A stretch of 64,000 bases of DNA. It comes from Bacteroidota bacterium (GTDB lineage Bacteria; Bacteroidota; Rhodothermia; JANXDC01). The stretch is taken from contig JANXDC010000011.1 in the NCBI GenBank assembly GCA_025059945.1, forward strand, positions 16,673 through 80,672. Reading direction: 5' to 3'. Numbering within the stretch: the stretch's first letter is position 1; the number at the start of each line of letters is the position of its first letter. The notes under the pieces were generated by a model, which saw only the letters and a list, made by a program, of their open reading frames with translations, was not told the origin of the DNA and did no database searches. The position numbers and the translations under genes are program-made. Below, piece after piece: positions 8,109 through 60,136 of this stretch.

Positions 8109-8662
8109 AGGCCCTCTCCGGCCCGAGGCGGGGTCCACGGCGTAGCGCGCCCCCGCAGCCAGGCCCAGCGTTTGATCGCCTCTGCGATCGCCTGCAGGCC
8201 CAGCAGCAGAAACCCGACCAAGATGACCGTTTTAATGGGGTACCGGGGCAGCCCGCCGGGATCCGGGGACATCTCGCGCAGCCGCCAGGAGCTCAGCACC
8301 GAAGGCCAGGAGAAGTAGAGCACGCTCGCGCAGAAGGGCAGCACAAAGAGCAGCATGCCGAGGAGTTCCATCCAGGCTCGGGTCCGGGGGGAGAAGCGGC
8401 CGTAGAAGACGTCCACCCGCACATGCGCTCCGTGCCGCAGCGCATAAGAGGCGCCCAGCAGAAAGAGCACGCTAAACAAGTACCACTGCAGCTCCAGGTA
8501 GGCGTTGGAGGTCAGGCTCCTTCCTAGAGCCCGTCCCGCGTAGCGGGCCGCGGCGTTATAGGTGCCCACGAGCACCATGAGAAGAATCGCCCAATAGGCG
8601 ATCCGGCCCGCGATTTCGCTCAGCTTGTCGATTCCGGCCCAGAGGCGCGCTAGTCTCCGCAT
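8105..8662 (-). CDS. dctQ: TRAP transporter small permease subunit
   Basis: ORF 8105-8722 trimmed to MRRLARLWAGIDK (ATG 8662), which is preceded by GGAGGA. Four hydrophobic segments and the size typical of DctQ. Confidence 0.85.
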   Translation of the reverse strand: MRRLARLWAGIDKLSEIAGRIAYWAILLMVLVGTYNAAARYAGRALGRSLTSNAYLELQWYLFSVLFLLGASYALRHGAHVRVDVFYGRFSPRTRAWMELLGMLLFVLPFCASVLYFSWPSVLSSWRLREMSPDPGGLPRYPIKTVILVGFLLLGLQAIAEAIKRWAWLRGRATPWTPPRAGEGL

Positions 8663-8739
8663 GCGCTCCTCCTCACAAAGAACAGGCGGCCGGAGTTTAG
8701 GACAGCGCCCCAAGAAAAGCAAGGCGTAATGCGTCTTCG

Positions 8740-10020: not shown

Positions 10021-10094
10021 GATGATGCCTCCTTCGGTTCGGACGCTAAAATACGGCTCGGGGGCCGATGGCGGGTCAAGAGGGCTTAAAAAAG

Positions 10095-10124
10095 CTTGCT
10101 CTGGCTTGCGCTCCCCGCGTATCA
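10095..10124 (+). promoter_or_regulatory. Candidate sigma70-type promoter for the TRAP binding-protein gene
   Basis: TTGCTC-18 nt-TATCAT, about 30 nt upstream of ATG 10156, in the divergent spacer. Confidence 0.3.
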
Positions 10125-10155
10125 TGGCAAGGTTTTCGGCCAAAGAGGGGGGTTT

Positions 10156-11274
10156 ATGGCGATGAAACGACGGGCGTTTTTAGCGCTGGCCGCCTCCGGT
10201 GGAGCGGCTTGGTTGGCGGGCTGTCGATCTCGGTCTGAGCAGACAGGCCCGGCTGTGATCACGCAGCCGCGCATCAGCTGGCGGTTGGCTTCCAGTTTCC
10301 CGCGAGGTCTGGACACGATCTTCGGCGCGGCCGAAATCCTGGCTCGACGCGTGGAGGCGCTTACCGAAGGGCGGTTTCGGATCCGCGTCTACCCGGCCGG
10401 AGAGCTGGTGCCCGGCCTGCAGGTGCTCGACGCCGTGCAACAGGGTACGGTCCAGATAGGCCATACGGCCAGCTACTATTTTACGGGCAAAAACCCCGCC
10501 TTGGCCTTCGACACCACGCTGCCTTTCGGGCTTACGGCGCGTCAGCACAACGCCTGGCTGTATTACGGAGGGGGGTTGGAGCTACTGCGTGCGGTGTTTG
10601 CGGACTTCAACATCCTCACGTTTCCGGGGGGCAACACGGGGGCCCAGATGGGCGGTTGGTTTCGCCGGGAGATCCGCTCCGCAACCGACCTGCGGGGGCT
10701 TAAGATGCGCATCCCCGGCTTAGGGGGTGAGGTCATGAGCCGTCTGGGCGCGACCGTGCAGGTGCTGGCTGGCGGGGACATTTATCCGGCGCTGGAACGC
10801 GGGGCCATCGATGCGGCCGAATGGGTGGGGCCGTATGATGATGAGAAACTGGGTTTTCATAAAGTGGCCCGTTTTTACTACTACCCGGGCTGGTGGGAGC
10901 CCAGCGCCTGTCTGTCGTTTTACGTCAACCGCTCGGCCTGGGACCGGCTGCCCCGGGCCTATCAGCAGGCCATTGAGGTGGCCTCCTATGAGGCCAACCT
11001 GGCTATGTTGGCCCATTATGATCAGCAAAACCCGCTAGCTCTGGAGCGGCTGCGGCAGGCCGGCGTGCAGCTGCGGCGTTTTCCTGAGGATATCCTGCAA
11101 GCGGCCCAACGCATCGCCTTCGGCTTGTACGAAGAACAAGCCGCGCGCGAGCCCACATACCGAAAGCTCTACGATGCTTGGAGGCGATTTCGTGAATTGG
11201 CCTACCGATGGTTCGGCACGGCCGAGCGGAGCTACGCGGATTTCGCCTTCCCCACGCCCGATCAGGCCCGGTGA
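10156..11274 (+). CDS. dctP: TRAP transporter substrate-binding protein (COG4663-like), predicted Tat-exported lipoprotein
   Basis: ORF 10096-11274 trimmed to MAMKRRAFLALAASGGAAWLAGC. This carries a twin-arginine RRAFL motif followed by the lipobox LAGC. DctP-family similarity over the rest. Confidence 0.88.
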   Translation: MAMKRRAFLALAASGGAAWLAGCRSRSEQTGPAVITQPRISWRLASSFPRGLDTIFGAAEILARRVEALTEGRFRIRVYPAGELVPGLQVLDAVQQGTVQIGHTASYYFTGKNPALAFDTTLPFGLTARQHNAWLYYGGGLELLRAVFADFNILTFPGGNTGAQMGGWFRREIRSATDLRGLKMRIPGLGGEVMSRLGATVQVLAGGDIYPALERGAIDAAEWVGPYDDEKLGFHKVARFYYYPGWWEPSACLSFYVNRSAWDRLPRAYQQAIEVASYEANLAMLAHYDQQNPLALERLRQAGVQLRRFPEDILQAAQRIAFGLYEEQAAREPTYRKLYDAWRRFRELAYRWFGTAERSYADFAFPTPDQAR

Positions 11275-21733: not shown

Positions 21734-23038
21734 ATGCGAATAGGGGCGCAAGCGGTGATCCTGGTGGTGCTTTTGTGGGGGGCTGGCGCCGTGCAAGCCC
21801 AAGAGCGGCCACACGTCTTCCGGGGCGCCACGATCTACCCCGTCTCGGGGCCGCCCATAGAGAACGGTGTGCTGGTGATCCAGGGCGGCAAGATTCTCGC
21901 CGTGGGGCCGGCTGGGCGCGTTGCGATCCCCGGCGGCGCGGTGGAGTTCGACCTGCGAGGCAAGGTCATCATCCCGGGCATGGTCGATACGCATTCGCAC
22001 ATCGGTGGGGGGGACGGCGGGGATCGATCCGCCACCCTGCACCCCGAGGTGCGGATTTTAGATGCGATCGATCCGCAGCATGACACCTTTTGGAAGGCCC
22101 GTGCGGGGGGGATCACGACGATGAACATCATGCCCGGATCCGGTCATCTCATGAGCGGCCAGACCGTATACGTTAAGCCCCGGCCAGCCCGCACGATCCA
22201 GGAGATGCTCTTCTGCCAAGATCCTCTGCGAGAAGTGTGCGGGGGCATGAAGATGGCCAATGGTACGAACTCCCTGGGTAATCCCCCTGCGCCCGGTACG
22301 CGCGCCAAGTCGGCAGCTCTGGTGCGACAGCTTTTCCTAAAGGCCGTCGAGTACCGCGAAAAAATCCGGCAGGCCCAGGGCGATCCGGCCAAGATGCCAT
22401 CTCGAGACCTGCAGATGGAGGCCCTGGTGGAAATCCTGGAGGGCAAACGCATCGTGCACTTTCACACCCACCGGCACGACGACATCCTAACGGCCATCCG
22501 CTTGGGGCAGGAATTCGGCTTTCGGCCCGTGTTGCATCACGTAAGCGAGGCTTGGAAGGTGGCCGACGAGATCGCCCGGGCTCGGGTGCCCTGCTCGATC
22601 ATCGTGCTCGACTCTCCGGGGGGCAAGCACGAGGCCGTCGACATCCGATGGGAGAACGGGGCGGCCCTTGAGAAGGCCGGCGCCGAGGTGGCCTTTCATA
22701 CCGACGATGCCGTTACGGATTCTCGCCTGTTTTTGCGCTCCGCCGCTATGGGGGTTCGGGCCGGTATGAGCCGCCAGAAGGCCTTGGAGGCGCTTACCTT
22801 GGCCGGGGCCCGCATGCTGGGACTGGAGCAACGCATCGGCTCGCTTGATCCGGGCAAGGACGCCGATTTCGTGGTGCTCTCGGGTGATCCCTTTAGCGTG
22901 TACACGCATGTGGAGCAGACCTGGATCGACGGCCAGAAGGTTTTCGATCGCTCTAACCCCGAGCACCGCAAGTACGCCGTGGGCGGCTACGGGGCCTATC
23001 GGGGGGACGCATACGGACACGATGAGGGAGAGGAATAG
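21734..23038 (+). CDS. Amidohydrolase-superfamily metallo-hydrolase (COG1228-like), secreted, intact metal ligands
   Basis: AGGAGG 7 nt upstream and a signal peptide. HxH motif MVDTHSHIGG, then HFHTHRH, VLHHVSE, AFHTDDA. Confidence 0.88.
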   Translation: MRIGAQAVILVVLLWGAGAVQAQERPHVFRGATIYPVSGPPIENGVLVIQGGKILAVGPAGRVAIPGGAVEFDLRGKVIIPGMVDTHSHIGGGDGGDRSATLHPEVRILDAIDPQHDTFWKARAGGITTMNIMPGSGHLMSGQTVYVKPRPARTIQEMLFCQDPLREVCGGMKMANGTNSLGNPPAPGTRAKSAALVRQLFLKAVEYREKIRQAQGDPAKMPSRDLQMEALVEILEGKRIVHFHTHRHDDILTAIRLGQEFGFRPVLHHVSEAWKVADEIARARVPCSIIVLDSPGGKHEAVDIRWENGAALEKAGAEVAFHTDDAVTDSRLFLRSAAMGVRAGMSRQKALEALTLAGARMLGLEQRIGSLDPGKDADFVVLSGDPFSVYTHVEQTWIDGQKVFDRSNPEHRKYAVGGYGAYRGDAYGHDEGEE

Positions 23039-23040
23039 CC

Positions 23041-24261
23041 ATGCGCGCCAGCTACCGTGTGGGTTTGGGGGCTTGTCTTTTCGTGCTTGTCTTTAGCGGC
23101 CTAAGCCGGGCGCAGCTTGCTGTGCGTGCGGAGCTGCTTTATACGATGGCTGGCCCCCCGATTCGAGGCGGGGTGGTGTTGATTCGGGACGGACGGATCG
23201 AGCGCGTGGGCCCAGCCACCAGCGTGCGCATCCCCTCGGGATATCGGGTCTTGGAGGCCAAGGTCGTAACGCCGGGGCTGATCGACGCGCGCACGGTCGT
23301 GGGGCTATCGGGTATCTACAACGTGCCGCACGATCAGATGCAGCTGGAGCGATCCGCACCTATCCAGCCTGAGCTCCGCGCCATCGACGCCTACAATCCG
23401 GAGGAAGCCCTGGTGGAGTGGGTGCGCAACCTGGGTGTGACTACGCTGCATACGGGCCACGGACCCGGAGCGCTCATCAGCGGGCAAACTATGATCGTAA
23501 AGTCCGCTGGCCGTACCGTGGAGGAGGCCCTCGTAGACTCTGTGGCCGCGGTGGCGGCCACTTTGGGCCGCAGCGTGGGGCAGAATTTCAGCTCCCCTGG
23601 AACGCGCGCCAAGGCCGTGGCCATGCTGCGGGCTGAGCTGCTCAAGGCCCAGGAATACGGCCGCAAACGCCGCGATCCGGATCCCAGCAAGCGTCCTGCA
23701 CGAGACTTAAGGCTCGAAGTCCTAGCCGACGTGCTGGAGGGCAAGATCCCCTTGCTCATAACAGCCCAAACGGCGCCTGATATTTTGGCCGCGCTGCGGC
23801 TGCAACGGGAGTTTGGCTTTAAGCTTGTGCTCGATGGCGCGGCGGAGGCTTATCTGGTGCTGGAGGAGATCAAGCAAGCGGGCGTGCCCGTAATCCTGCA
23901 CCCGACTATGGTGCGCACCGCCGGAGAGACGCGCAACGCCTCTATGGAGACGGCCGCCTTGCTGCATCGGGCGGGGATCCCGTTCGCCCTGCAGAGCGGA
24001 TACGAATCCTACGTACCTAAAACCCGCGTCGTGCTCTTTGAAGCCGCCGTAGCCGCAGCCCACGGGCTGCCTTTTGAGGCTGCCCTGGGGGCGATTACGA
24101 TCCAAGCCGCCCGCATTTTGGGGATCGACCGACGGGTGGGTTCGCTTGAGCCCGGAAAGGACGCGGATATGGTGCTCTTCGACGGGGATCCGTTTGAGTA
24201 CACAACGCGCGTCTGCGGCGTGATCATCAACGGGCGGCTCCTTACAGAGGGCTGCCGCTGA
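23041..24261 (+). CDS. Amidohydrolase-fold paralog lacking all canonical metal ligands (probable non-catalytic or divergent partner), secreted
   Basis: Collinear by eye with the upstream paralog (PGTRAKA..., EFGFK, GSLEPGKDADMVLFDGDPF). HxH is replaced by DARTV, HFHTHRH by LLITAQT, LHH by LDG, and HTDD by QSGY. Starts 2 nt after the upstream stop. Confidence 0.85.
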   Translation: MRASYRVGLGACLFVLVFSGLSRAQLAVRAELLYTMAGPPIRGGVVLIRDGRIERVGPATSVRIPSGYRVLEAKVVTPGLIDARTVVGLSGIYNVPHDQMQLERSAPIQPELRAIDAYNPEEALVEWVRNLGVTTLHTGHGPGALISGQTMIVKSAGRTVEEALVDSVAAVAATLGRSVGQNFSSPGTRAKAVAMLRAELLKAQEYGRKRRDPDPSKRPARDLRLEVLADVLEGKIPLLITAQTAPDILAALRLQREFGFKLVLDGAAEAYLVLEEIKQAGVPVILHPTMVRTAGETRNASMETAALLHRAGIPFALQSGYESYVPKTRVVLFEAAVAAAHGLPFEAALGAITIQAARILGIDRRVGSLEPGKDADMVLFDGDPFEYTTRVCGVIINGRLLTEGCR

Positions 24262-41755: not shown

Positions 41756-43261
41756 ATGGTGATCCTAGAGGGCGGAGATCTTACGATAGCGCGCATAGCC
41801 GAGCTGCTGGCGCGCCGGGAGCCTATCGGGCTATCTCCGGTGGCCTGGGAGCGGGTCCATCGCGCCTGGCGCTGGATCGAGCTTGCCGCCCAGGAGGAGG
41901 TTCCCGTCTATGGCGTAAACACCGGCTTTGGCGCCCTGGCGCAGGAGCGCATCCCGGTGCAAGCGCGAAGCCAACTGCAGCGCAACCTACTCCTTTCGCA
42001 CGCCGTGGGCGTAGGGGAGCCGCTTCCGGATGAGGTGGTTCGGCTTATGCTGCTGCTGAAGATCAACTCCCTGGCCCTGGGATACTCCGGGGTGCGGCCC
42101 CAGACGCTGGAGCGGCTGATTGCACTCTACAATGCGGACCTACTACCCTGGGTCCCGTCTCGGGGTTCGCTGGGGGCGAGCGGGGATCTGGCCCCCCTGG
42201 CTCATCTTGTGTTGCCCCTTATCGGCGAGGGGGAGCTCAAAGAGGGGGGGCGCTTGCGTCCGGCGCGCGCAGTGCTGCTGGAGCGCGGCTGGGCACCCCT
42301 GGAGTTGGGCCCCAAGGAGGGGTTGGCCCTAATCAACGGCACGCAACTGATGAGCGCTTGCGGGACCTGGGTGCTTCTGCGGGCGCGTCGGCTCCTGCCC
42401 ACAGCGGACCTGATCTTGAGCATGTCCTTGGAGGCCCTGCAGGGAAGCCTCAGGCCGTTTGACGCCCGCCTGCATGCGGTGCGGCCTCATCCGGGTGCGG
42501 CCATCGTGGCCGAAAACGTGCGTCGGCTTCTGCAGGAAAGCGAAATTCTGGCATCTCACCGGCTCTGCGACAAGGTCCAGGACCCTTACTCGCTGCGCTG
42601 CGCGCCCCAGGTGCACGGGGCCAGCCGCGACGCGCTGGCGTATCTGGAGCGTGTGGTGGAGACGGAAATCAACGCGGCCACGGACAACCCGCTTGTATTT
42701 GAGGACGGCACGATCTTAAGCGGAGGCAACTTCCACGGCCAGCCCTTGGCTCTGGCTCTAGATCTGGCCGCGATCGCCTTGGCCGAGCTGGCCAGCATTT
42801 CGGAGCGGCGATTGTATCTATTGCTGGAGGGGCGCGACGGGCTGCCCAGGTTGCTTGTGCGCAACACGGGGCTTAACTCTGGGCTCATGCTGCTTCAGTA
42901 TACGGCCGCCGCCCTGGTCTCCGAAAACAAGGTCCTCTGCCATCCCGCCTCGGTCGATTCCATTCCCACCTCTTTGGGCCAAGAAGATCACGTGAGCATG
43001 GGCAGCATAGCGGCCCTAAAGCTGCTGCAGGTCCTGGAGAACACGGAGACCGTGCTAGCGTTGGAGCTGCTGGCCGCCGCGCAGGCGCTTGATTATCGGC
43101 TCCCCTTGATGCCGGGTCGGGGCGTGCGCCTGGCGCATGAGATCGTACGACAGCATATACCGCACGCCGAGGCCGATCACCTTCTGAGCCCAAGCATCGC
43201 CCAGGCGCTGGAGCTGGTCCGCTCAGGGGTTCTATTGGAGGCGGAGCCTGCCTTGCTATGA
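41756..43261 (+). CDS. hutH: Histidine ammonia-lyase
   Basis: 501 aa. MIO-forming GSLGASGDLAPLAHL. The selectivity region reads LLLSHAVGVG (Ser-His, HAL-type rather than TAL/PAL). Confidence 0.92.
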   Translation: MVILEGGDLTIARIAELLARREPIGLSPVAWERVHRAWRWIELAAQEEVPVYGVNTGFGALAQERIPVQARSQLQRNLLLSHAVGVGEPLPDEVVRLMLLLKINSLALGYSGVRPQTLERLIALYNADLLPWVPSRGSLGASGDLAPLAHLVLPLIGEGELKEGGRLRPARAVLLERGWAPLELGPKEGLALINGTQLMSACGTWVLLRARRLLPTADLILSMSLEALQGSLRPFDARLHAVRPHPGAAIVAENVRRLLQESEILASHRLCDKVQDPYSLRCAPQVHGASRDALAYLERVVETEINAATDNPLVFEDGTILSGGNFHGQPLALALDLAAIALAELASISERRLYLLLEGRDGLPRLLVRNTGLNSGLMLLQYTAAALVSENKVLCHPASVDSIPTSLGQEDHVSMGSIAALKLLQVLENTETVLALELLAAAQALDYRLPLMPGRGVRLAHEIVRQHIPHAEADHLLSPSIAQALELVRSGVLLEAEPALL

Positions 43262-48637: not shown

Positions 48638-50710
48638 ATGGAGTGGATCCATTACCTGATCCCGCTGACGGGGCTTATCGCCCTGGGTTATGCCTTATGG
48701 CGCTCCGCGTGGGTAGCCCGACAAGATGCAGGCACGCCGGAGATGCAGGCTATTGCCGGGGCCATCGCAGAGGGTGCACGCGCTTTCTTGAGGCGCGAAT
48801 ATCGGGTGCTTTTCTGGTTTGTGCTCGTTCTAGCTGTGCTTCTGGTGTTGGCCAACCGAGACAACCCCGGCACCTCTCCACTTATCGCGCTCTCCTTCGT
48901 AACGGGGGCCTTCTGTTCGGGCTTGGCGGGGTTCCTAGGTATGCGCGTGGCCACGCTGGCGAACGTGCGCACCACACAGGCTGCGCGTACCAGTTTAAAT
49001 CAGGCCCTGCGCATGGCCTTCTCCGGCGGATCCGTTATGGGCATGAGCGTAGTGGGTCTGGGTGTGCTGGGCCTGGGCCTGCTTTTTTTGTTCTACACCC
49101 GCCTGGATTGGTCGATCGAGCGGGTCATCAACGTGATTTCGGGCTTTTCGCTCGGCGCCTCCTCGATTGCGCTCTTCGCCCGCGTTGGCGGGGGCATCTA
49201 CACGAAGGCCGCTGATGTGGGCGCGGACCTAGCCGGAAAGGTTTACGAGGGCATTCCCGAGGATGACCCCCGAAATCCGGCCGTGATCGCGGACAACGTG
49301 GGCGACAACGTCGGAGACGTGGCGGGCATGGGGGCGGACCTGTTCGAATCCTACGTGGGGTCGATCGTAAGCGCTATGGTGTTGGGGGCACTTTTTGTGG
49401 GGCTGCCCGAATTCAGCGGGGCTAGCCAGCTTAACGCTGTGCTGCTGCCCTTGGTGCTAGCCGGGGCCGGAATCGTGATTTCACTCCTGGGCACGGCCTT
49501 TGTTCGCGTCCGCGAGGGCGATAACCCCCAAAAGGGCCTCAACTGGGGCATTTTCGGGGCCGCCGTCCTTATGGTGCCGACCACCTACGCGATCGTCTGG
49601 GCCCTGCTGCCCGCTGAATGGTACTTTGAAGACCGCCTGTACACGGCCAACGGAGTCTTCGGGGCCACGCTGATCGGGCTCGCCGTGGGCGTCCTGATCG
49701 GTCTTTCGACGGAGTACTACTGCTCACCATACCGACGGCCTGTGCTTTCGATCGTGCGCCAGAGCGTTACGGGTCCAGCCACCAACATCATCGCCGGTCT
49801 GGGCGTGGGGATGGAGTCGACAGCCATTCCCCTGGTGCTGATCGGCTTCGGGATCTTGGGCGCCTACACGCTGGCGGGGTTATACGGCATCGCCTTAGCC
49901 GCCCTGGGAATGCTTTCCGTTACGGGCATTCAGCTCGCCACAGACGCATACGGACCTATAGCGGACAACGCGGGGGGGATTGCGGAGATGAGCCACCAAC
50001 CCCCGGAGGTGCGCGGCCGCACAGATAAGCTCGACGCGGTGGGCAACACGACGGCCGCTATTGGAAAGGGTTTCGCCATCGGATCGGCTGCGCTCACGGC
50101 CTTGGCCCTGTTTGCTGCCTTCCAACAGCAGGCGCAGATCCCTGTGATCAACCTTACCGAGGCCCATGTGATGGCCGGGCTTTTTATCGGCGCCGTCCTG
50201 CCGTTTCTGTTTAGCTCCTTTGCGATAGGAGCCGTGGGCCGCGCAGCCAAACAGATGATCCTCGAGGTGGGCCGGCAGTTTCGGGAGATCCCGGGCCTGC
50301 GCGAGGGCAAGGCGCGCCCCGAATACGCCCGGTGCGTGGACATCTCCACGCGCGCGGCCATCAAAGAGATGATTCCGCCCGGCCTCATGGCTATCCTGGT
50401 GCCCACTGCGATCGGGTTCATCGACAAGAACATGCTCGCTGGCCTGCTGGCGGGCGTGGTGGTAAGCGGGGTGCTGCTGGCCATCTTTCAGGCCAACGCC
50501 GGCGGGGCCTGGGACAACGCCAAAAAACGCGTCGAGGAAGGCATCGAACTAGAGGGGGTCCTCTACAAAAAGGGCACGGAGACGCACAAGGCCACGGTTG
50601 TGGGGGACACCGTGGGGGATCCGCTCAAGGACACCTCCGGGCCCTCGCTGAACATCCTGATCAAGCTTATCTCCGTTATCTCTCTTGTTATCGCGCCTCT
50701 GATCGCCTAA
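48638..50710 (+). CDS. hppA: Membrane-bound proton/sodium-translocating pyrophosphatase
   Basis: 690 aa, polytopic. [23 protein letters not shown] and [17 protein letters not shown] signatures. Confidence 0.95.
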
Positions 50711-51527
50711 ACGGCGGGGCTGCGACGCCCTCTGGGCCTTGTGGCCCCTTTGAGTCGGGGCTTTCAAGCCGGGTGCCCTTTTCCAGGGAGGCTAGGGCCT
50801 CCACGGGTCCGATCCAGACCCGCAGGCCCTCTGTTGCCGCCCGCAGGGCGGCTTCGATCTTGGGGCGCATGCCGTCGCGGATCCAGCCCGCCTTAAGCCC
50901 CTCTTGGGCTCTGTGGGTCGAGAGCCTCTGGATCGGACGTCCTACTTCGTCCCATACGCCCTCAGAGGCCGCAAGCCAGAGCAAGGCTTGGGACCTCAGC
51001 GCAAGAGCCACCTCCACGGCCACGGTGTCGGCGTTGACGTTGTATAGCTGGCCTTCGGCGTCTATTCCGAGCGGCGCAACCACGGGCAGATAGCCGGCCC
51101 GAAGCAGGGTGTACAGAAGCCCCGGACGAACGCCCCATACGTCGCCCACGTAGCCGAAGTCCACTAAGCCGCTTGCCGTCTGTTGGGGCGGTCGGCGCCT
51201 GACCTGCAACAGGCCGCCATCGGCTCCGGAAAGCCCGACGGCGGGCAGCCCGACGGACTGAGCCTGGGCCACAAGCCGTCGATTGAGCTCACCGCATACG
51301 GTCCACAACAGAATGCGCAGGTCCAGGTCGGTGGTCAGGCGGCGGCCCTCGACGAAGCGCGGCCCGTGGCCGATGGCGTGCGCCAGGTCCGTGGCTTGTT
51401 TGCCGCCTCCGTGCACGAGCACGACCGGGGCGCGAGCCCACCAGAAGCCAACGCCCTTCCACAGGGCCTGAAGCCGCTCTTCGGCCTCCAGCACCTCGCC
51501 GCCGACTTTGATCACGACAGGTTCCAT
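50688..51527 (-). CDS. argB: Acetylglutamate kinase
   Basis: ORF 50688-51767 trimmed to [13 protein letters not shown]. An alternative GTG at 51515 would give a GTGA overlap with the argF' stop. Amino-acid-kinase family motifs. The 3' end overlaps convergent hppA by 23 nt. Confidence 0.88.
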
Positions 51528-52534
51528 ACCCACTCCAAGATAGCCTTCTGCGCATGCAGGCGGTATTCGGCCTGCACCAGATGGCGCGCCCAGGGCCCAT
51601 CGAGCACGGCGTCGTCTACCACGACATTGCGCCGCACGGGCAAGCAGTGCATGAAAACGGCCTCTCGAGTCCGGCGCATGCGGGCCTCTGTTACGCGCCA
51701 GTCCCGCAGCGAAAGCCGAAGCTGGGACTCGGCCTCTGGGTCGGTGTAGGCGAGCCTGCCGCCCCACGCCTTGGCGTAGACCACCTCGGCGCCCTCAAAA
51801 GCCTCATCCAACGCGTCGGTTTCGCGCACCTCTAGCCCATGTTGGGCCGCGTATTGGCGCGCTAGGGCCATCACCTCGGGGTCCAGCTCGTAGCCGGCGG
51901 GGCGGGCTATGGTGACGCGCATGCTCAGGCGAGTGGCCATAAGCAGGGCCGAGTTGGGCACCGCCATGGGAAGCGCCTTGGGATGGTAGGCCCAGGTGAG
52001 CAGAAAAGAACGGCCCGCAAGGCGTTCTCGAAACAGGTCCATCAAGGTGGCCGCATCCCCCAGGGCCTGACACGGGTGCCAGAAGGCGGACTCGAGGTTG
52101 ATGATGGGCACGCTCGCGGCGCGCACGATCCGGCGCAAGAAGGCCTCAGAGCGGTCCTGTTCGTAATCCCGCAAGGAGGCGAAGGCGCGCACGCCTATGG
52201 CGTCGTAGTAGCGCGATAGAACCCCGATGGCCTCCTGGATGTGCTCCGCCTCCGGGCCCTCCATCACGACCCCATCGCGCCACTCAAAGCCCCAGGTTCC
52301 TTGACCGGGCACGAGCACCGAGACGTGCGCGCCCAGTTGCGCGGCCGCTAACTCCATAGAGGTGCGCGTGCGCAGGGAAGGGTTGAAGAAAAGCAGAGCG
52401 ATCGCGCGGCCTCGGGCTCGGTCCGTCCAGCGCCGCTCGCGCGCGAAGCGGCGCGCCGCCTCCAGGCGGTCCCACCAGAGGGCCTCATCGAGCAGGTGCC
52501 AATCGATAAGGTGGCGCAAGCTCTCAGGAGGCAT
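51512..52534 (-). CDS. argF: N-acyl-L-ornithine carbamoyltransferase (argF' type: N-acetyl- or N-succinyl-ornithine)
   Basis: 340 aa. FFNPSLRTRTS, HPCQ and HCLPVRR carbamoyltransferase motifs. No OTCase DxxxSMG loop; YAKAWGG instead, as in the AOTCase/SOTCase clade. Confidence 0.85.
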   Translation of the reverse strand: MPPESLRHLIDWHLLDEALWWDRLEAARRFARERRWTDRARGRAIALLFFNPSLRTRTSMELAAAQLGAHVSVLVPGQGTWGFEWRDGVVMEGPEAEHIQEAIGVLSRYYDAIGVRAFASLRDYEQDRSEAFLRRIVRAASVPIINLESAFWHPCQALGDAATLMDLFRERLAGRSFLLTWAYHPKALPMAVPNSALLMATRLSMRVTIARPAGYELDPEVMALARQYAAQHGLEVRETDALDEAFEGAEVVYAKAWGGRLAYTDPEAESQLRLSLRDWRVTEARMRRTREAVFMHCLPVRRNVVVDDAVLDGPWARHLVQAEYRLHAQKAILEWVWNLS

Positions 52535-53720
52535 AGGCTGGCTCCGTTCGGGCGATCCGGGCTAAGGCCCGCTCGAAAGCCTCCAGGAACAGCTCGATGT
52601 CCGCTTCCGAAAGCACAAGCGGGGGAAGCAGGCGGATGGTGTTGGGATGTTCCGAGCCGCCCACGAGCACCCCCTCCTGCCGCAGGGCAGCGATCACGGG
52701 CCCGGCGGGGCCCGGAAGCTCGACGCCGATCAAGCAGCCTCGGCCGCGCACGGCGCGCACGCGCCCAGCAAGCCCATCGCGGATGCGGGTGAAGATCTCG
52801 GGGGCGCGGGCCATCCAGTTGCCCTGTCGCAGCATCCGGAGCGTAGCCGCAACCGCGGCCATGGCGAGCATCCCGCCCCCGAAGGTCGTGCCCTGATCGC
52901 CAGGTCGCACGGTCTCGGCTATGCGCTCGGAGACGAGCACGGCTCCCACGGGCACGCCCGAGCCCAGGCTTTTGGCGAGCGCGATCAGATCGGGCCGCAT
53001 GCCGTAGGCCTCCGAGACGGAGAACGTGCCGGTTCGGCCCACGCCGGTCTGCACTTCATCGAAGATGAGCAGCACTTCGTGCGCATCGCATAGCCTGCGC
53101 AGCTCCCGATAGTACCCCGAGGGGGCCTCGTAGACCCCCGCCATGCTTTGGATGGGCTCCAGGATAACGGCCGCTATGTCGCGGCGCCGCCGCAGAAGTT
53201 CTTTAAGAGGGACCAGTTCGCCGAAGGGCACAAAGTACGTCTCGGGCAACACGGCCCTGTAGGGCCTTCGATAGGCCTGCCCCCAGGTCACGGCCAGGCT
53301 GCCCAGCGTGCGGCCGTGAAAATCCCCTCGCATGGCCACCACGCCGCTGCGGCCCGTGTAGGCCCGCGCCAGCTTAAGGGCCGTCTCCACGGCCTCTGTG
53401 CCGGAGTTGCAGAAGAAAACTTTCTTGAGCCCCTCCGGAGCCAGTTCGGCCAGTTCGCGGGCGGCCTCGGCGCGCACAGGGCTGTAGACCACGTTGGAGT
53501 AAAACACAAGATGCTGCGTCTGTCGGCAGATAGCCTCCACCACGGGCGGCGGATTATGCCCCAGCAAGGTGACGCAGTGGCCTCCGTAAAGATCCAGATA
53601 ACGCCGGCCCTCCACGTCCCACACGTAGGCGCCTTCGCCCCGCACCAGCGCCAAGGGCCATTTCTGGTAGGTGGGCAGTTCGTAGGTCTCCTCCAGAAGG
53701 CGAGTGTGCTCAAAGCTCAT
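52524..53720 (-). CDS. argD: Acetylornithine/succinylornithine aminotransferase (class III PLP)
   Basis: 398 aa. GSEAVE-like NSGTEAVE, IFDEVQTGVGRTG, and the PLP-Lys region LAKSLGSG. 11-nt overlaps with both neighbours. Confidence 0.92.
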   Translation of the reverse strand: MSFEHTRLLEETYELPTYQKWPLALVRGEGAYVWDVEGRRYLDLYGGHCVTLLGHNPPPVVEAICRQTQHLVFYSNVVYSPVRAEAARELAELAPEGLKKVFFCNSGTEAVETALKLARAYTGRSGVVAMRGDFHGRTLGSLAVTWGQAYRRPYRAVLPETYFVPFGELVPLKELLRRRRDIAAVILEPIQSMAGVYEAPSGYYRELRRLCDAHEVLLIFDEVQTGVGRTGTFSVSEAYGMRPDLIALAKSLGSGVPVGAVLVSERIAETVRPGDQGTTFGGGMLAMAAVAATLRMLRQGNWMARAPEIFTRIRDGLAGRVRAVRGRGCLIGVELPGPAGPVIAALRQEGVLVGGSEHPNTIRLLPPLVLSEADIELFLEAFERALARIARTEPAYAS

Positions 53721-54738
53721 GGGTTACGTCCTCCGCAACGGAACCGGGAATCAGGCCCAGGGTCTCGGGCCAAGTGAAGAGCCGGTTGAGGTTCTGCACC
53801 GCCTGGCTGGCCGCGCCTTTGAGCAGGTTATCCAGGGCAAAGCCGATGACGAGCCGCCCATCGCGCAGAACCCAACCGATGTCGGCATAAGGCGTGCCCA
53901 CGCTCCAGCGCAGCTCAGGAAGCAAGCCGGGCCAGAGCCGCACGCAGCCGCCCTCGAGGTAGGCCTCCTGAAAACAGGCCTCCACGAAAGAGGCTGAAAG
54001 AGGCCTTTGCGGCAGTAGGTGGATCACCCCCCAGATGCCGCGCGTCCACGGCCCGGAGGCGGGCACGAAGGCCAGCTGCCAGTCGCCTTGCAGCCGGGCC
54101 TCGATTTCCGGCAGGTGCTGATGAGCCAAGACCTTGTAGGCCCGCACGTTGCCCTGGCGCGTGGGGAAGTGCGTCGTCTCCGAGGGTCGCACACCGGATC
54201 CGGAGGCTCCCGTGAGCGCCGTTACGTGGGCATGTCCCCGAACTCCGGCTCGGTCCAAGGGCCAGAGCGCGAGCAGGATCCCCGTGGCGAAACAGCCCGG
54301 ATTGGCGATCCAGCGGACATCCTCCGGATACGGACCGAGCTCGGGAAGCCCATATTGAAAACGCCCCACAAGTTCCGGGGCCGGATGGGTGAACCCGAAC
54401 CAGTGGGGATAAAGCTCAGCCCGGGGCAGGCGGAAGTCGGCGCTCAGATCTATGATCGCGCCGCCGTAGCCCCGTTGCAGGAGCTCGCGGACCGTTTCCG
54501 CTCCCTTTCCGTGCTCGGCCGCCACAAAGACCGCATCCGGAGAGCCGTTCAAGTCCAGCCGCTCGACGAAGCGCAGCTCCGAAAGCCCCCGCAGTTCCGG
54601 ATGCGCGGCCCAAAGGGGAGATCCGGCGTGATGCCGGCTGGTGACCGCGACCAGTTGAACGCGGGGATGGCCGAGCAAAAGCCGGATGAGCTCCCGGCCC
54701 GCGTAGCCAGATCCGTGCAGCAGGGCGACGCGCTTCAT
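53710..54738 (-). CDS. argC: N-acetyl-gamma-glutamyl-phosphate reductase
   Basis: ORF 53710-54966 trimmed to MKRVALLHGSGYAGRELIRLL. Active-site ANPGCFATG. ATGA overlap with the upstream gene stop (54738-54735). Confidence 0.92.
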   Translation of the reverse strand: MKRVALLHGSGYAGRELIRLLLGHPRVQLVAVTSRHHAGSPLWAAHPELRGLSELRFVERLDLNGSPDAVFVAAEHGKGAETVRELLQRGYGGAIIDLSADFRLPRAELYPHWFGFTHPAPELVGRFQYGLPELGPYPEDVRWIANPGCFATGILLALWPLDRAGVRGHAHVTALTGASGSGVRPSETTHFPTRQGNVRAYKVLAHQHLPEIEARLQGDWQLAFVPASGPWTRGIWGVIHLLPQRPLSASFVEACFQEAYLEGGCVRLWPGLLPELRWSVGTPYADIGWVLRDGRLVIGFALDNLLKGAASQAVQNLNRLFTWPETLGLIPGSVAEDVTHEL

Positions 54739-55814
54739 CCCACCACCCCTACGTGAGCGCGTCCGTTTGCGCCCCATCGCTCGCGCACAGCGAGCGCCTC
54801 CAGCACGCGTTCGGCTAGCGCCTCGGGTTCGCGTTGCGCGTTGAGGGCCGGGATGCCCAGGGCGTTTTGGATGTACTGTTTGCCCACGGCGTTGTCCGTT
54901 ACAGGTCCGACCATGACCGTAATCGGGCTCCGGTAACGGGTCCTGAAGAGATAATCGGCGGCCCATGCGCCGGCCAGGTCCGCGGCCGCCACCACGTGGG
55001 CGGCCGTAAGGGCCTCGAGCTCTTTGTCCATCAGCAGCTCATCGACCCCATAGTAGCCGATAAACCCATCGCCAAGCTCCAGCACCAGTACATCGGGGCG
55101 ATAAGCGTTCAAGGCCGCAATAAGGCCTTTGGCGATGGGCACCATGTTTTTGTTCACGGAGGAGACCACGCCGGCGTCGACGAACGTCAGACACGCTACG
55201 GCGCCGGCCTCGCGCATGGCCCGCACGTCACGCAATAGGGCCGCGCCTGTCAGTTTTGCCGCCGCTACGCGCAGCCCGTGCGCGCGCAGGCCCCGTACGA
55301 TCTGCGCCGCCGCATACGTTTTGCCCGTATTCATGGCTGTGCCGCTGACCATGATCAGAGGGGCCGCCTGGGGCAGGCTATAGACAGGTTCCAGGGCGTG
55401 ATCTTGGATGCGGGCGTGCCGTTTGATCCCGTTTAGCTCGTAGACCACGGCCCCCAGCACCTCGACCCGCAGCGCCGGACCCAGCTCGGGATGGTCTGAG
55501 GTGCACTGCCCCAGAATCCCGCCCATGTTGAGCACGTGCAGCACGTCGCCGACTTGAATCCGGCGCGGGATGCGGCCGCTATAACCCTTCAAGGCCTGTC
55601 GTTCGCCCAGGGCCCCGACCAGGATCTGCCCGCGGCGCAGGACCTGAAAGCTCCCGTCGCAGGTCTCCACTTGGTTGTAGCGATCTTTTTCTTCAAGCAC
55701 CCGCACGGCCACACAGTAGCCCTCTTCGGCTACGATGTAGGGGCTGATTTCCAACTCGGGGCCCAGGTTGCAGGGGGCCGTGCTGGAGGCGATCAGATCG
55801 ACGCGCAGGCGCAT
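54735..55814 (-). CDS. Uncharacterised protein: beta-rich N-domain plus SIMIBI/dethiobiotin-synthetase-like P-loop domain, embedded in the arg operon
   Basis: 359 aa. P-loop VSGTAMNTGKTYAAA and Walker-B-like VLVLELGDGFIG. Starts 2 nt after the argG stop and overlaps the argC start by ATGA. The family was not identified by eye; DUF1611/DgcN-like and CobQ/BioD-like are the candidates. Confidence 0.8.
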   Translation of the reverse strand: MRLRVDLIASSTAPCNLGPELEISPYIVAEEGYCVAVRVLEEKDRYNQVETCDGSFQVLRRGQILVGALGERQALKGYSGRIPRRIQVGDVLHVLNMGGILGQCTSDHPELGPALRVEVLGAVVYELNGIKRHARIQDHALEPVYSLPQAAPLIMVSGTAMNTGKTYAAAQIVRGLRAHGLRVAAAKLTGAALLRDVRAMREAGAVACLTFVDAGVVSSVNKNMVPIAKGLIAALNAYRPDVLVLELGDGFIGYYGVDELLMDKELEALTAAHVVAAADLAGAWAADYLFRTRYRSPITVMVGPVTDNAVGKQYIQNALGIPALNAQREPEALAERVLEALAVRERWGANGRAHVGVVG

Positions 55815-55816
55815 GG

Positions 55817-57034
55817 CTACTCCTTCTGAGGCTGGGTGGCGAACGCAGACCGCACGCGGTGCGCAAGCAAGGCGGGCACGCCCCAGATGCGGGCGAAGCC
55901 TTCGGCGTCGCGGCCGCTCCAGAGCTTGTTGACCTCCCCGTAGGTGGCCAGATCCGGGGCGAAGAGCGCATACGGGCTCTCGGCCCCCAGCACCTCGATT
56001 CGGCCCTGCTGAAGCCGGAGGCGCACGGTGCCCGTTACGAACTGTTGGGAAGAGTCCAAAAACGCCTCGATATCCCGCATCACGGGGTCAAAGTACTGGC
56101 CCTCGTGCAGCAGCATGCCGTAGAAGTCGGCCAGATGATCCTTCTGGAAACGCTGCCACTTGGTGAGCACGAGCTTCTCCAGCTCCCGGTGCGCGGTAAT
56201 GAGCACAAGCGCGGCGGGGGCCTCAAAGCCTATCCGGCCCTTGATGCCCAAGATTGTATCCCCGACGTGCGTGCCGCGCCCTACCCCGTGGGCGGCCCCG
56301 ATGCGGTTCAGGGCCTCAATAAGCGCGACGGGGTCCATGGGCTCCCCGTCTAGAGCGGTGGGCAAGCCCTTTTCGAAATCGATGCGCAGCTCCACCCCCT
56401 CCTGGGAGGCGAGCGCAGGGTCCTGCGTCTCCACCCAGGCCTCCGGGGGCAGAGGCTCAGAGGGGGTGAGCGTCTCCCGACCGCCGATCGTCGTGCCCCA
56501 CAGGCCGCGGTTAATCGAGTAGCTGGCCTTGGCCTCCGAGATGGGAAAACCGCGCGCCCGCAAATAAGCGGCCGTCTGCTCGCGCGTCCAGCCCAGATCC
56601 CGAATCGGGGTCAGGATGGCTAGATCGTCGGCCAGCACCCGCAGGGCCACATCAAAGCGGATCTGGTCGTTGCCCGCCCCCGTAGAGCCGTGCGCGACGG
56701 CCCACGCCCCCAGCTGGCGGGCCATCTCCACGACCTTGCGGGCCTGCACCACCCGTTCCGGGCCCACGCAGAGCGGATAGACCCCGCCTCGCAGCACATT
56801 GCCCTTGATGAGGTAGCTTAGGTGCGCGACAAACAGCTCACGGCGGCCGTCTACGGTCCAATGCCCGGCTGAACCCAAGGCCTTCGCCCACCCGGCTAGC
56901 CGTTCGGCCTCGGCTTCGTCGATACCCCCTGTGTTGACGGTTACCGTGTAGACGGGATCTCCGTAGTGCTCTCTGAGGTAGAGCACGCAGAAGGACGTAT
57001 CCAGCCCTCCGCTAAAGGCCAACACAATTGCCAT
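55817..57034 (-). CDS. argG: Argininosuccinate synthase
   Basis: ORF 55817-57070 trimmed to MAIVLAFSGGLDTSFCVLYL. The upstream TTG start would lie inside the leader terminator U-tract. GGAGG upstream. Confidence 0.93.
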   Translation of the reverse strand: MAIVLAFSGGLDTSFCVLYLREHYGDPVYTVTVNTGGIDEAEAERLAGWAKALGSAGHWTVDGRRELFVAHLSYLIKGNVLRGGVYPLCVGPERVVQARKVVEMARQLGAWAVAHGSTGAGNDQIRFDVALRVLADDLAILTPIRDLGWTREQTAAYLRARGFPISEAKASYSINRGLWGTTIGGRETLTPSEPLPPEAWVETQDPALASQEGVELRIDFEKGLPTALDGEPMDPVALIEALNRIGAAHGVGRGTHVGDTILGIKGRIGFEAPAALVLITAHRELEKLVLTKWQRFQKDHLADFYGMLLHEGQYFDPVMRDIEAFLDSSQQFVTGTVRLRLQQGRIEVLGAESPYALFAPDLATYGEVNKLWSGRDAEGFARIWGVPALLAHRVRSAFATQPQKE

Positions 57035-57063
57035 CTTGTGGCCGTGCCTCCGGTTTAGTGCTG

Positions 57064-57096
57064 AAAACAAAAACGCCGGTTCGAGTGAACCGGCGT
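57064..57096 (-). terminator. Intrinsic terminator hairpin inside the argG 5' leader (candidate attenuator)
   Basis: Minus strand reads ACGCCGGTTC-ACTC-GAACCGGCGT (perfect 10-bp stem) followed by TTTTGTTTT. It ends 29 nt before the argG ATG. No minus-strand gene lies upstream that it could terminate. Confidence 0.7.
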
Positions 57097-57120
57097 CTGC
57101 GTATACGAGCTAGGATGATT

Positions 57121-57222
57121 TTATACAGCTTTCCGTGCCACGCAACGCCCGTTCACCCGTCGGGGGGCTCCCCCTCGTCGGGATCGTCGGACGCGGGCGA
57201 TGTGGGCGGTGTGCTTCGCCAT
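57121..57222 (-). CDS. Putative Arg-rich leader peptide (33 aa) of the arg operon
   Basis: ATG 57222 to TAA 57121, translated by hand as MAKHTAHIARVRRSRRGGAPRRVNGRCVARKAV. Nine Arg codons, five of them CGA. Codons 23-28 form the antiterminator strand. Too short for the supplied ORF track. Confidence 0.45.
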   Translation of the reverse strand: MAKHTAHIARVRRSRRGGAPRRVNGRCVARKAV

Positions 57223-57233
57223 AGGCGGGTGCA

Positions 57234-57262
57234 AGTGTACGGAATGCGCGGGGGAATGTCAA
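57234..57262 (-). promoter_or_regulatory. Candidate sigma70-type promoter for the arg leader and operon
   Basis: Minus strand TTGACA-17 nt-TACACT. The -10 ends 11 nt before the leader ATG, which implies a very short 5' UTR. Confidence 0.4.
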
Positions 57263-57354
57263 GAGGCCGAAACGATTTTGTTACAAGTGCCCGCAGTTCT
57301 TGCGCCTCCCTGTCGGGTAGCGCGAGATTGCGCGGCGTAAGCAAGGAGGTGAAG

Positions 57355-58620
57355 ATGCGTTGGGTAGCCTCAGGCCTATTGCTGTTCTTTTGGGTGCCGA
57401 CTCTGGGGGCACAGCCCGATCGCCCGAGCGGTTCTCGGTTCGATCCCCGCATGCTGCAAGAGCGCGCCATTCAAGCGGCGCTTCAGTGGGTTGAGGCGCA
57501 TCGGGAGGCGCACGTGCAGGAGTGGATCCGGCTTACGGAGATCCCGGCGCCCTCTGGGCGCGAGGCGCGCCGAGCGGCCTATATTCGAGCGGAGATGGAG
57601 CGCATGGGGCTGGACTCCGTGCACATCGACGCCAAGGGCAACGTCGTGGGTATTTTGCGCGGCCGATCCCGCCATCCGGCTATTGCCGTGGCCGCGCACA
57701 TGGACACGGTGCATCCGCTGGAGGAGATCCGGGTGCGCCGAGAGGGGGACACCCTCTATGCGCCGGGGGTGCTGGACGATACGGCCGGGCTTGTGGTGAT
57801 GCTCCAGACGGCTCGGGCGCTTCGGGCCAGCCGGGTCCCTTTAAGCGGGGATGTGATCTTGATCGCCACGGTGCAGGAGGAGGTGGGGCTAAAGGGCATG
57901 GAGTATTGGCTCAACCAAAACCCTCGACGGGCCGACATGGTCATCGCCGTGGACGGCAACCTGGGGGATGTGCCCTATGGAGCGCTTGGCATCAAGTGGT
58001 TTCGGTTTCACTATCGCGCCTATGGGGCGCACACCATGCAGAGCCTGGGTCAGCCCAACCCCAACCGAGCCGTGGCGCGGGCGATTCAGGACATTTACCG
58101 GCTGCCCTTGCCGCATCCCTCGGGCGCGTTTGTGATCTACAACGTCGGCCTGATCGGCGGGGGCACGGTGCCCAACGCCGTCTCCCAGCACTCCTACTTC
58201 ACCGTGGACCTGCGCTCTCCGAGTGCGCGCTTGTTGCAGGAGTACGCCGACTCCATCTTGGCGCGCGCCCGCCGGGCGGCTGAGCAAGAGCGGGTGCGCT
58301 TTGAGCTTGAGGTGCTCAACGACGCCCCAGCTGGCGGCACGGAGGCGGAGCTAGCCGACCGGCGCGAACACCCGCTAGTGCAGACGGCTGTGCACGTGCT
58401 GAATTACCTCGAAGTGGGCAGGCAACTGGGGCGTCCTGTGCGACCTGTAGCGACGGGTTCTACGGACGCCAACATGGCCGTTGTCCGAGGCATCCCGGCC
58501 ATCGCCTATGGGCGCTGCTTCGGTCGCGATCAGCACACCCTGCAGGAGGCGGCCCACATCCCCAGCGCCTTTACCGCCACAAAGGGCCTTATTCTGCTCT
58601 TGGCCTCGCTGCTGCGCTAG
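57355..58620 (+). CDS. Secreted M20 family metallopeptidase (ArgE/DapE/CPG2 fold)
   Basis: ORF 57028-58620 trimmed to MRWVASGLLLFFWVPTLGAQ (signal peptide), with AAGGAGG 6 nt upstream. Motifs AHMDTVH, VLDDTAG, TVQEEVGLKG. Confidence 0.88.
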   Translation: MRWVASGLLLFFWVPTLGAQPDRPSGSRFDPRMLQERAIQAALQWVEAHREAHVQEWIRLTEIPAPSGREARRAAYIRAEMERMGLDSVHIDAKGNVVGILRGRSRHPAIAVAAHMDTVHPLEEIRVRREGDTLYAPGVLDDTAGLVVMLQTARALRASRVPLSGDVILIATVQEEVGLKGMEYWLNQNPRRADMVIAVDGNLGDVPYGALGIKWFRFHYRAYGAHTMQSLGQPNPNRAVARAIQDIYRLPLPHPSGAFVIYNVGLIGGGTVPNAVSQHSYFTVDLRSPSARLLQEYADSILARARRAAEQERVRFELEVLNDAPAGGTEAELADRREHPLVQTAVHVLNYLEVGRQLGRPVRPVATGSTDANMAVVRGIPAIAYGRCFGRDQHTLQEAAHIPSAFTATKGLILLLASLLR

Positions 58621-59650: not shown

Positions 59651-59692
59651 CAGGGAGAATCATTTCTTTGCACGTTCTCCTGTGTTTTTTTT
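59651..59692 (+). terminator. Terminator-like hairpin plus T8 in the long leader upstream of the response-regulator gene
   Basis: CAGGGAGAA / TTCTCCTG (8 bp with one bulge), 15-nt loop, then TG and TTTTTTTT. About 85 nt upstream of GTG 59777. Confidence 0.4.
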
Positions 59693-59776
59693 GACCTTTC
59701 CGAGATCGCAGATGAGGGGGGAGAAGGAGTCCGCTCGCGGCGAGCATCCTGGCGGGAGCCGGCACGTCTGCCGGTC

Positions 59777-60136
59777 GTGCTCGTCGTGGAGGATAACCCC
59801 GACGTACGGCGGCTGCTCGTTTTGTATTTGCGCGGCCGTTACGAGGTGGTCGAAGCCGCAACGGGCGAGGAGGCCTTTCGGATCGTCCAAGAGCGGCCGG
59901 TGGATGCGATCCTTATGGACATCAATCTGCCCGGGGATTGGAGCGGGCTGGATGCGGCGCGCGCCATCCGGGCTCTGCCTGGCATGGCGCATGTGCCCAT
60001 TATCGCCCAGACGGCCTATGCCGCGCTTTTCGATGAACAGCAGGTGCTTGCCGCTGGCTGCTCTTATTACATGAACAAGCCCATATACCGTCATGAGCTG
60101 CTTAGCGTGCTGGAGCGTTTTCTTTCGCACCCGTAG
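59777..60136 (+). CDS. Single-domain CheY-like response regulator (orphan)
   Basis: Receiver domain VLVVEDNPDVRRL...ILMDINLPG...MNKP in the frame of ORF 59255-60136. There is no in-frame ATG near the domain start, so GTG 59777 is proposed. The start is uncertain. Confidence 0.7.
   Translation: MLVVEDNPDVRRLLVLYLRGRYEVVEAATGEEAFRIVQERPVDAILMDINLPGDWSGLDAARAIRALPGMAHVPIIAQTAYAALFDEQQVLAAGCSYYMNKPIYRHELLSVLERFLSHP

Follow-up and report, generated by a model that had tools for sequence, protein, structure and literature searches.

A P-loop protein encoded in the arginine operon of a Rhodothermales-like bacterium is a predicted N-acylglutamate-forming enzyme

Introduction

The closest described counterpart of the gene studied here is ACG33_RS14135 of Steroidobacter denitrificans, which a 2026 preprint (GapMind; bioRxiv 10.1101/2024.10.14.618325, Appendix 2) predicts to be an alternative N-succinylglutamate synthase. 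According to this preprint, the members of the family are hypothetical proteins that are encoded "virtually always" in arg operons (argB/C/D/F'/G/H/R) and never co-occur with ArgA homologs, the neighboring ArgF' has A, P, S or V at position 92 in 90% of the cases, and Steroidobacter also lacks a recognizable ArgE. The same source reports a weak Foldseek similarity (E = 1.4e-7) between ACG33_RS14135 and DgcN (7XRJ), a P-loop enzyme that it calls a D-glutamate acetyltransferase. In Bacteroides, BT3761, a homolog of the N-acetylglutamate synthase Cabys_1732, is encoded in the arg cluster, and genetic evidence indicates that it is needed for arginine synthesis (PMC7311316). Here we report the analysis of a 64,000-nt stretch of contig JANXDC010000011.1 (referred to as the window), in which a gene for a protein of 359 amino acids, designated X, is embedded in an arg operon. 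The sequence originates from a hot-spring metagenome; among genomes, the nearest relative is that of Bacteroidetes bacterium KatS3mg041. The analysis indicates that X probably makes N-acyl-glutamate, whatever the chemistry by which it does so.

Matching descriptions make it very likely that X and ACG33_RS14135 belong to the same family, a statement that refers to described properties and not to aligned sequences; no Steroidobacter or A0A127FCT3 entry was present in the X homolog searches, the cluster look-ups or the supplements of the preprint. A predicted role for the family is already public. The present work adds a replication, further phyla, a correction regarding DUF1611 and a sharper mechanistic question. 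A previous sequence-only reading of the window had considered the acylating enzyme of Bacteroidota pathways containing ArgF' to be poorly established. In Bacteroidia, genetic evidence favors the BT3761-type enzyme (PMC7311316), and at the locus studied here this enzyme is probably replaced rather than merely unrecognized.

Results

An unassigned gene in a compact arginine operon

All positions are given on the scale of the window, and the arg operon is located on the minus strand. Gene X (54735..55814) has an ATG start and is annotated here as a predicted N-succinyl-L-glutamate synthase and non-orthologous replacement of ArgA. It is preceded by argG (55817..57070), encoding argininosuccinate synthase (TIGR00032, 328.6 bits), and followed by argC (53710..54738; TIGR01850, 291.9 bits), argD (52524..53720; N-acylornithine aminotransferase, Pfam Aminotran_3, 340.8 bits), argF' (51512..52534; N-acylornithine carbamoyltransferase, NCBIfam NF003384, 433 bits) and argB (50688..51527; N-acylglutamate kinase, TIGR00761, 187.9 bits), which is the final operon gene in the window. 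The resulting gene order is argG-X-argC-argD-argF'-argB. The argD-type identity of the class-III aminotransferase is based on its Pfam match; its best NCBIfam models are those of argD/acetylornithine transaminase (371-372 bits), every one of which scored under its curated cut-off.

The junctions between these genes are very short. The minus-strand 3' end of argG reads ...CAGAAGGAGTAG (stop TAG) and is followed by CC and the ATG of X, so that 2 nt separate the argG stop from the X start, and a GGAG sits 7 nt 5' of this ATG. At its 3' end, X reads ...GGGATGA, the inner ATG of which is the argC start at 54738, and the two genes thus overlap at an ATGA. Further overlaps were observed between argC and argD (11 nt), argD and argF' (11 nt), and argF' and argB (16 nt). 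Judging from these junctions, the translation of X is coupled to that of argG on one side and of argC on the other. The ORF, its neighbors and the 2-nt, ATGA and 11-nt junctions had all been noted in the sequence-only reading and were borne out. As to co-transcription, the sequencing runs containing this sequence are hot-spring metagenome DNA runs only, with no RNA run among them. In the window and in its closest relative locus (L001), the operon ends at argB and adjoins a convergent gene for an H+-pyrophosphatase (48638-50710, plus strand).

The association of X with arginine genes is conserved across phyla

The X family is large: its homologs fall into 1831 clusters at 90% identity and, at E < 1e-3, into 1241 clusters at 50% identity. 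Its named members belong to the Rhodothermales, the Gemmatimonadales and the Acidobacteriota/Blastocatellia, and there is one alphaproteobacterial metagenome-assembled genome (MAG). We scanned the surroundings of X homologs in 102 loci, comprising 22 loci from Rhodothermales genomes (56-81% identity) and 80 metagenome loci (~40-53% identity to X). Arg genes were found beside the X homolog in all 102 loci, and the order argG-X-argC in 100 of them; the two exceptions (L072 and L090) contain arg genes, with argG in another place. The order argG-X-argC-argD-argF'-argB was kept in each of the 22 Rhodothermales loci and, as far as the contig reaches, in 78 of the 80 metagenome loci.

The three remote bacterial contexts examined also had arg genes flanking the X homolog, namely, argG-X-OTCase (28% identity), argG-X-OTCase-argH-argS (36% identity) and, in the Alphaproteobacteria MAG, X-argC-argB plus argD (30% identity). 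The tie of X to arginine genes, initially proposed from this one locus, is thus kept far outside this genome. The homolog clusters and the conserved synteny establish X as a real gene, with a conservation far beyond chance.

Two further observations concern distant relatives. In a remote subfamily (L107:7086-9443 and L108), the order argG-X-argF'-argH is followed by genes for arginyl-tRNA synthetase (tRNA-synt_1d) and EF-Tu, an unusual tie of arginine synthesis to arginine charging. Full-length homologs with ~31% identity were also found in Aspergillus, namely, in A. avenaceus (L104:8001-9056; GCA_009193465.1 ML742132.1) and A. melleus (P0222), and are annotated just as P-loop or uncharacterized proteins. 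The A. avenaceus gene adjoins a divergent citrate synthase gene as well as genes for a Zn-cluster transcription factor and a major facilitator superfamily (MFS) transporter, with no arg genes near; it may have been acquired horizontally, or it may be a secondary-metabolism paralog with a different substrate.

Glutamate N-acylation is the step without an assigned gene

Neither argE nor argH is present within the 64-kb window; in relatives, both are usually located 3' of argB. Among the 39 loci with enough downstream sequence, 34 had an ArgE with the M20 and M20_dimer domains encoded directly 3' of argB, and ArgE and ArgH were both present in 28 of 34 loci. Upstream of argG, 17 of the 43 small same-strand ORFs encode ArgR and none encodes a GNAT protein. 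No recurrent GNAT, ArgA or ArgJ was detected near the operon in the 102 related loci. The typical fuller operon is thus argR-argG-X-argC-argD-argF'-argB-argE-argH. Because ArgE, ArgH and ArgR are assigned and no GNAT, ArgA or ArgJ recurs, the N-acylation of glutamate is the sole step without an assigned gene in the fuller operons, and X is the sole unassigned gene.

For the window itself, we derived 48 non-overlapping ORFs of at least 110 amino acids and scanned 35 of them; the remaining ones are 12 ORFs of more than 500 amino acids in 1-40353 and a 156-amino-acid ORF at 59660-60130 (minus strand). No GNAT, ArgA or ArgJ was found among the 35 scanned ORFs, in agreement with what had been read from the letters of the window.

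Two other candidates for pathway functions were considered and rejected. An M20/M28/M42-type peptidase encoded at 57028-58620 (plus strand), divergently from argG, was inspected as a potential ArgE; it is devoid of M20_dimer and shares 25% identity with the operon-type ArgE. It has a signal-peptide-like N-terminus, MRWVASGLLLFFWVPTLGAQP, from residue 110 of the long ORF, and L001 is the sole relative that keeps its gene upstream of argG. Rather than ArgE, this protein is probably a secreted aminopeptidase. A LysW/ArgX carrier-protein route is countered by the family models, since ArgB passes the argB cut-off and both ArgB and ArgD score far under the cut-offs of the corresponding LysW-type models, as well as by ArgF', which acts on small N-acyl-ornithines.

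The neighboring ArgF' points to succinylated intermediates

To read the acyl group from the operon, we aligned the ArgF' of the window to the N-acetylornithine carbamoyltransferase of Xanthomonas and to the structures of its E92A/S/V/P mutants. Ala96 of the window ArgF' aligns with Xanthomonas Glu92. In the 55 ArgF' proteins whose genes are next to X homologs, the equivalent residue is Ala (30), Val (21), Pro (2), Ser (1) or Thr (1), and Glu does not occur at this position in any of them. The preprint (10.1101/2024.10.14.618325) cites Shi et al. 2007 for the rule that such substitutions of Glu92 switch the specificity to N-succinylornithine. The window ArgF' is therefore predicted to be specific for N-succinylornithine and, given that the residue is never Glu and given the rule of Shi et al. 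2007, the pathway probably runs via succinylated intermediates. Both Ala96 and the 55 non-Glu residues point to succinyl and not to acetyl intermediates. The NCBIfam name N-acetylornithine carbamoyltransferase (NF003384) is probably wrong for the ArgF' of this clade.

X is not covered by existing family models

The only Pfam match of X was DUF1611, which scored 19.6 bits against a cut-off of 25 bits (E = 6e-4) and covered residues 150-187 only. The sole NCBIfam match was mobB (E = 0.0076). Residues 1-149 had no match in Pfam, X had no match among the PDB sequences, and no similarity to GNAT, to amino-acid kinase plus GNAT, to ArgA or to ArgJ was found in Pfam or NCBIfam. The same picture was obtained for ten remote relatives, none of which falls into a Pfam family: DUF1611 scored between 0 and 16.8 bits, or CbiA/MobB was matched instead. 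When ten diverse relatives were compared with the curated NCBIfam models, nothing rose above noise and no DgcN match was obtained at E <= 0.1; their weak matches were to CobQ, CobB, BioD and MobB, none of which exceeded 17.8 bits, the cut-offs being 83-310 bits. A family profile searched against the PDB sequences (E <= 10) matched FtsY, BioD and MobB and no DUF1611 chain.

Judged by these models, no Pfam or NCBIfam family covers X, and the initial description of the gene as unrecognized was correct. By sequence, X is not a member of DUF1611/DgcN. The parallel drawn earlier with this family has to be withdrawn in view of the sub-threshold Pfam score, the lack of a DgcN match in NCBIfam, the lack of a DUF1611 chain among the PDB matches and the all-beta N-terminal domain described below.

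The label is nevertheless in use: P0113 (Longibacter salinarum), P0058 and P0456 carry either the UniRef name "DUF1611 domain-containing protein" or a precomputed PF07755 match. In a 2025 metagenome survey (PMC12363236), dgcN was reported in Rhodothermia and Woeseiales. As a matter of speculation, some of these calls may be arg-operon homologs of X rather than genes of D-glutamate catabolism.

X combines an all-beta domain with a BioD-like P-loop domain

An AlphaFold2 model of X was built with 27 homologs and showed high confidence (pLDDT of 92, pTM of 0.89). Conservation was scored on 69 family sequences with identities down to 26%. The N-terminal domain (residues 1-144; 55383..55814, minus strand) is predicted to be all-beta, with residues 1-133 nearly all in strands, in line with the beta-rich segment of some 140 amino acids proposed earlier. 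When modeled by itself, it again reached a pLDDT of 92. A Foldseek search with this domain against the PDB found no match (best E = 0.47, TM-score of at most 0.26). Its conserved positions are S10, G32, E50, G70, R72, G80, P83, the LNxGGxxG stretch at 95-102 and G121, of which S10, G32, E50, G70, R72, P83, G99 and G102 are nearly invariant.

The C-terminal part (residues ~145-348; 54771..55382, minus strand) was assigned by Foldseek to the SIMIBI-class P-loop domains and is BioD-like. The top match in the PDB was BioD 3of5 (E = 3.4e-6, TMt of 0.58), followed by SRP54/FtsY and HypB (2hf8, E = 4.1e-5). The DUF1611/DgcN structures 7XRJ, 2G0T and 2OBN were not among the best 50 of the 147 matches with E <= 1e-3. 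The two motifs recognized at the outset were both recovered, namely, the Walker A motif or P-loop GTAMNTGKT (residues 158-166; 55317..55343, minus strand) and the Walker-B-like strand LVLELGDG (residues 243-250; 55065..55088, minus strand). The family alignment added Lys187 (55254..55256, minus strand), 22 residues past the Walker A Lys, and a conserved GPVTDN motif (residues 303-308; 54891..54908, minus strand). The residues G164, K165, K187 and E246 are invariant, and in this domain T166, G190, D196, D241, G248, D279 and G303 are nearly so.

The spacing from K165 to K187 equals that between K18 and K40 in the CTP synthase (PyrG) encoded in the window itself. The hhalign comparison of the X family with the amidoligase domain of this PyrG was used for the Lys spacing alone, as it had a probability of 1.6% and aligned only the segment from the P-loop to K187. 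A Gemmatimonadales homolog gave a weak, collinear and non-significant alignment with Mycobacterium tuberculosis BioD (E = 0.19), in which three pairs of elements are matched: the two P-loops (GKT), K187 and the CKPVQTG Lys, and the ELGDG and VEGAGG motifs.

Other genes in the window

Elsewhere, the window encodes an aromatic amino-acid ammonia-lyase (643.8 bits), a pair of adjacent amidohydrolases, DctP and DctQ of a TRAP transporter, and an acetyl-CoA hydrolase/transferase; taken together, the coordinates of these genes are 41756-43261 (plus strand), 21734-24261 (plus strand) and 8105-11274. They are ordinary and unrelated to X.

Discussion

Proposed function and alternatives

The proposal that X forms N-acyl-glutamate, most likely N-succinyl-L-glutamate, draws on the cross-phylum synteny, the pathway gap, the succinyl signature of ArgF', the translational coupling, the independent preprint and the weak similarity of the P-loop segment to DUF1611 (E = 6e-4). 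As a more specific and still tentative assignment, X may make N-succinyl-L-glutamate from succinyl-CoA in the first step of arginine biosynthesis. Succinyl-CoA is suggested as the donor because of the analogy with DgcN, which reportedly uses acetyl-CoA. In such a reaction, the BioD-like P-loop domain could bind the nucleotide part of succinyl-CoA, the beta domain (E50, R72 and LNxGG) could help to place glutamate, and the alpha-amine of glutamate would attack the succinyl-CoA thioester. The N-succinyl-L-glutamate formed would then be carried to arginine by ArgB, ArgC, ArgD, ArgF', the M20 ArgE, ArgG and ArgH.

Several points weigh against this assignment. X does not pass the sequence tests for DUF1611/DgcN, and Foldseek places BioD first and 7XRJ outside the best 50 matches. 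In this genome, the search for ArgA, ArgJ and GNAT covers 35 ORFs of the 64-kb window, and the link between X and the ACG33_RS14135 family relies on described features. The role of ACG33_RS14135 is itself given as a prediction only (10.1101/2024.10.14.618325). Furthermore, the invariant K165, K187 and E246 and the near-invariant T166 correspond to BioD-type phosphoryl-transfer residues and would suit an ATP-dependent ligase at least equally well. The idea of a non-orthologous N-acyl-glutamate-forming enzyme, put forward in the sequence-only reading, is therefore upheld in part: the embedding among arg genes, the missing first step and the preprint speak for it, whereas the kinship with DUF1611/DgcN does not.

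The ligase deserves to be taken seriously because BioD, CTP synthase and CobQ employ the invariant residues in the phosphorylation of a carboxylate or carbonyl, and because BioD is the nearest structure, although we consider this possibility rather unlikely overall. X would in this case be a succinate:L-glutamate ligase that depends on ATP (or GTP) and carries out the same step by a different chemistry, in which succinate is converted to succinyl phosphate and attacked by the glutamate amine, as in BioD, CTP synthase and CobQ. Such an enzyme would recycle the succinate that ArgE sets free, and it would not depend on a CoA thioester. The ranking of BioD 3of5 as top structural neighbor, the conservation of the Walker A Lys and Thr, of the Lys 22 residues further on and of the Walker-B Glu, the Lys spacing shared with PyrG, the collinear BioD alignment of the Gemmatimonadales homolog, and the fact that the weak NCBIfam matches were to CobQ, CobB, BioD and MobB and never to DgcN are all consistent with it. 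However, the sequence matches to BioD are non-significant, and the P-loop residues are probably kept by DUF1611 proteins too, which makes their conservation non-discriminating. In addition, all characterized N-acylglutamate synthases known to us use acyl-CoA, and DgcN, to our knowledge the only characterized P-loop enzyme that N-acylates glutamate, reportedly depends on acetyl-CoA.

Two other roles appear far less probable. X could be an accessory NTPase that does not catalyze a pathway step, either inserting metal into the M20 deacylase or assisting its assembly, in the manner of the G3E proteins HypB, UreG and MeaB, or serving as a regulatory or scaffold subunit. The SIMIBI fold, with HypB 2hf8 among the structural matches, and the tight co-expression with the arg enzymes that the junctions suggest would fit, and this was the chaperone option of the sequence-only reading. 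We do not favor it and regard it as improbable, as operons that are otherwise complete for the pathway would then have no gene for its first step. X lacks G3E hallmarks, in that the conserved columns contain neither an NKxD motif for guanine specificity nor a Cys/His metal-binding motif, and the operons of the window and L001 have X but no M20 ArgE. The mutual exclusion with ArgA (10.1101/2024.10.14.618325), moreover, is expected of a replacement and not of an accessory factor.

The least probable role, which we judge to be very unlikely, is that of a deacylase acting on N-succinylcitrulline, or of a transacylase similar to ArgJ, with N-succinylcitrulline or N-succinylornithine as the succinyl donor and glutamate as the acceptor. 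An ArgF' of the acyl-ornithine type is always encoded along with X, and ArgE is missing from the window operon and not recognizable in Steroidobacter (10.1101/2024.10.14.618325), as such a function might predict. However, X is not a replacement of ArgE, because a standard M20 ArgE is encoded beside it in the same operon in 34 of 39 loci. We also know of no P-loop NTPase fold that carries out amide hydrolysis or ArgJ-type Ntn transacylation.

Implications

Formation of N-acyl-glutamate by X would bear on a first committed step of arginine biosynthesis that has no recognizable gene in several lineages (Gemmatimonadales, Blastocatellia, Rhodothermales) abundant in soil, marine and hot-spring habitats. 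The X family is labeled "hypothetical" and at times "DUF1611" by automated annotation, and because it is missed, these organisms count as arginine auxotrophs in metabolic reconstructions. If the function of X is confirmed, this gap would be filled by one family of over 1200 clusters (50% identity) that has no Pfam or NCBIfam model. X would then be a P-loop protein that N-acylates glutamate, in a CoA- or ATP-dependent manner, with a new substrate-binding domain. Were the ligase chemistry to apply, it would represent a mechanistically new entry into arginine biosynthesis in Rhodothermales, Gemmatimonadota, Acidobacteriota and some Proteobacteria.

Comparison with known systems

The DgcN/DUF1611 proteins (PF07755 plus PF17396; 7XRJ, 2G0T and 2OBN) share with X the GTxxxxGK[ST] P-loop and the SIMIBI fold and, if the prediction for X holds, the N-acylation of glutamate. 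They differ in that X stays below the DUF1611 cut-off (19.6 versus 25 bits, over 38 residues) and that no NCBIfam DgcN match was obtained for X or ten relatives. Moreover, the N-terminal domain of X is all-beta, with no solved analogue and no Pfam match, whereas that of DUF1611 is Rossmann-like. The substrate of DgcN is D-glutamate, in a catabolic role, whereas X would take L-glutamate for biosynthesis.

BioD, the N-terminal domain of CTP synthase, CobQ and CobB resemble X in the GTxxxxGKT loop, the second Lys at +22 and the acidic ExGxG Walker-B motif (E246-G248-D249-G250 in X). Unlike these proteins, X matches none of their family models, contains an additional beta domain of 144 residues and occurs in the context of arginine and not biotin biosynthesis. 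The BT3761/Cabys_1732-type synthase, ArgA and ArgJ have in common with X the proposed reaction and the membership in arg operons, but their folds are unrelated.

Compared with ACG33_RS14135 as described in the preprint, the Foldseek results for X differ, with BioD as the top match and 7XRJ outside the best 50. X stems from a thermophilic Rhodothermales-like bacterium in which the operon ends at argB, and ACG33_RS14135 from Steroidobacter. Both nevertheless share the setting in an arg operon, a neighboring ArgF' without Glu at the specificity position and a remote P-loop resemblance to DgcN.

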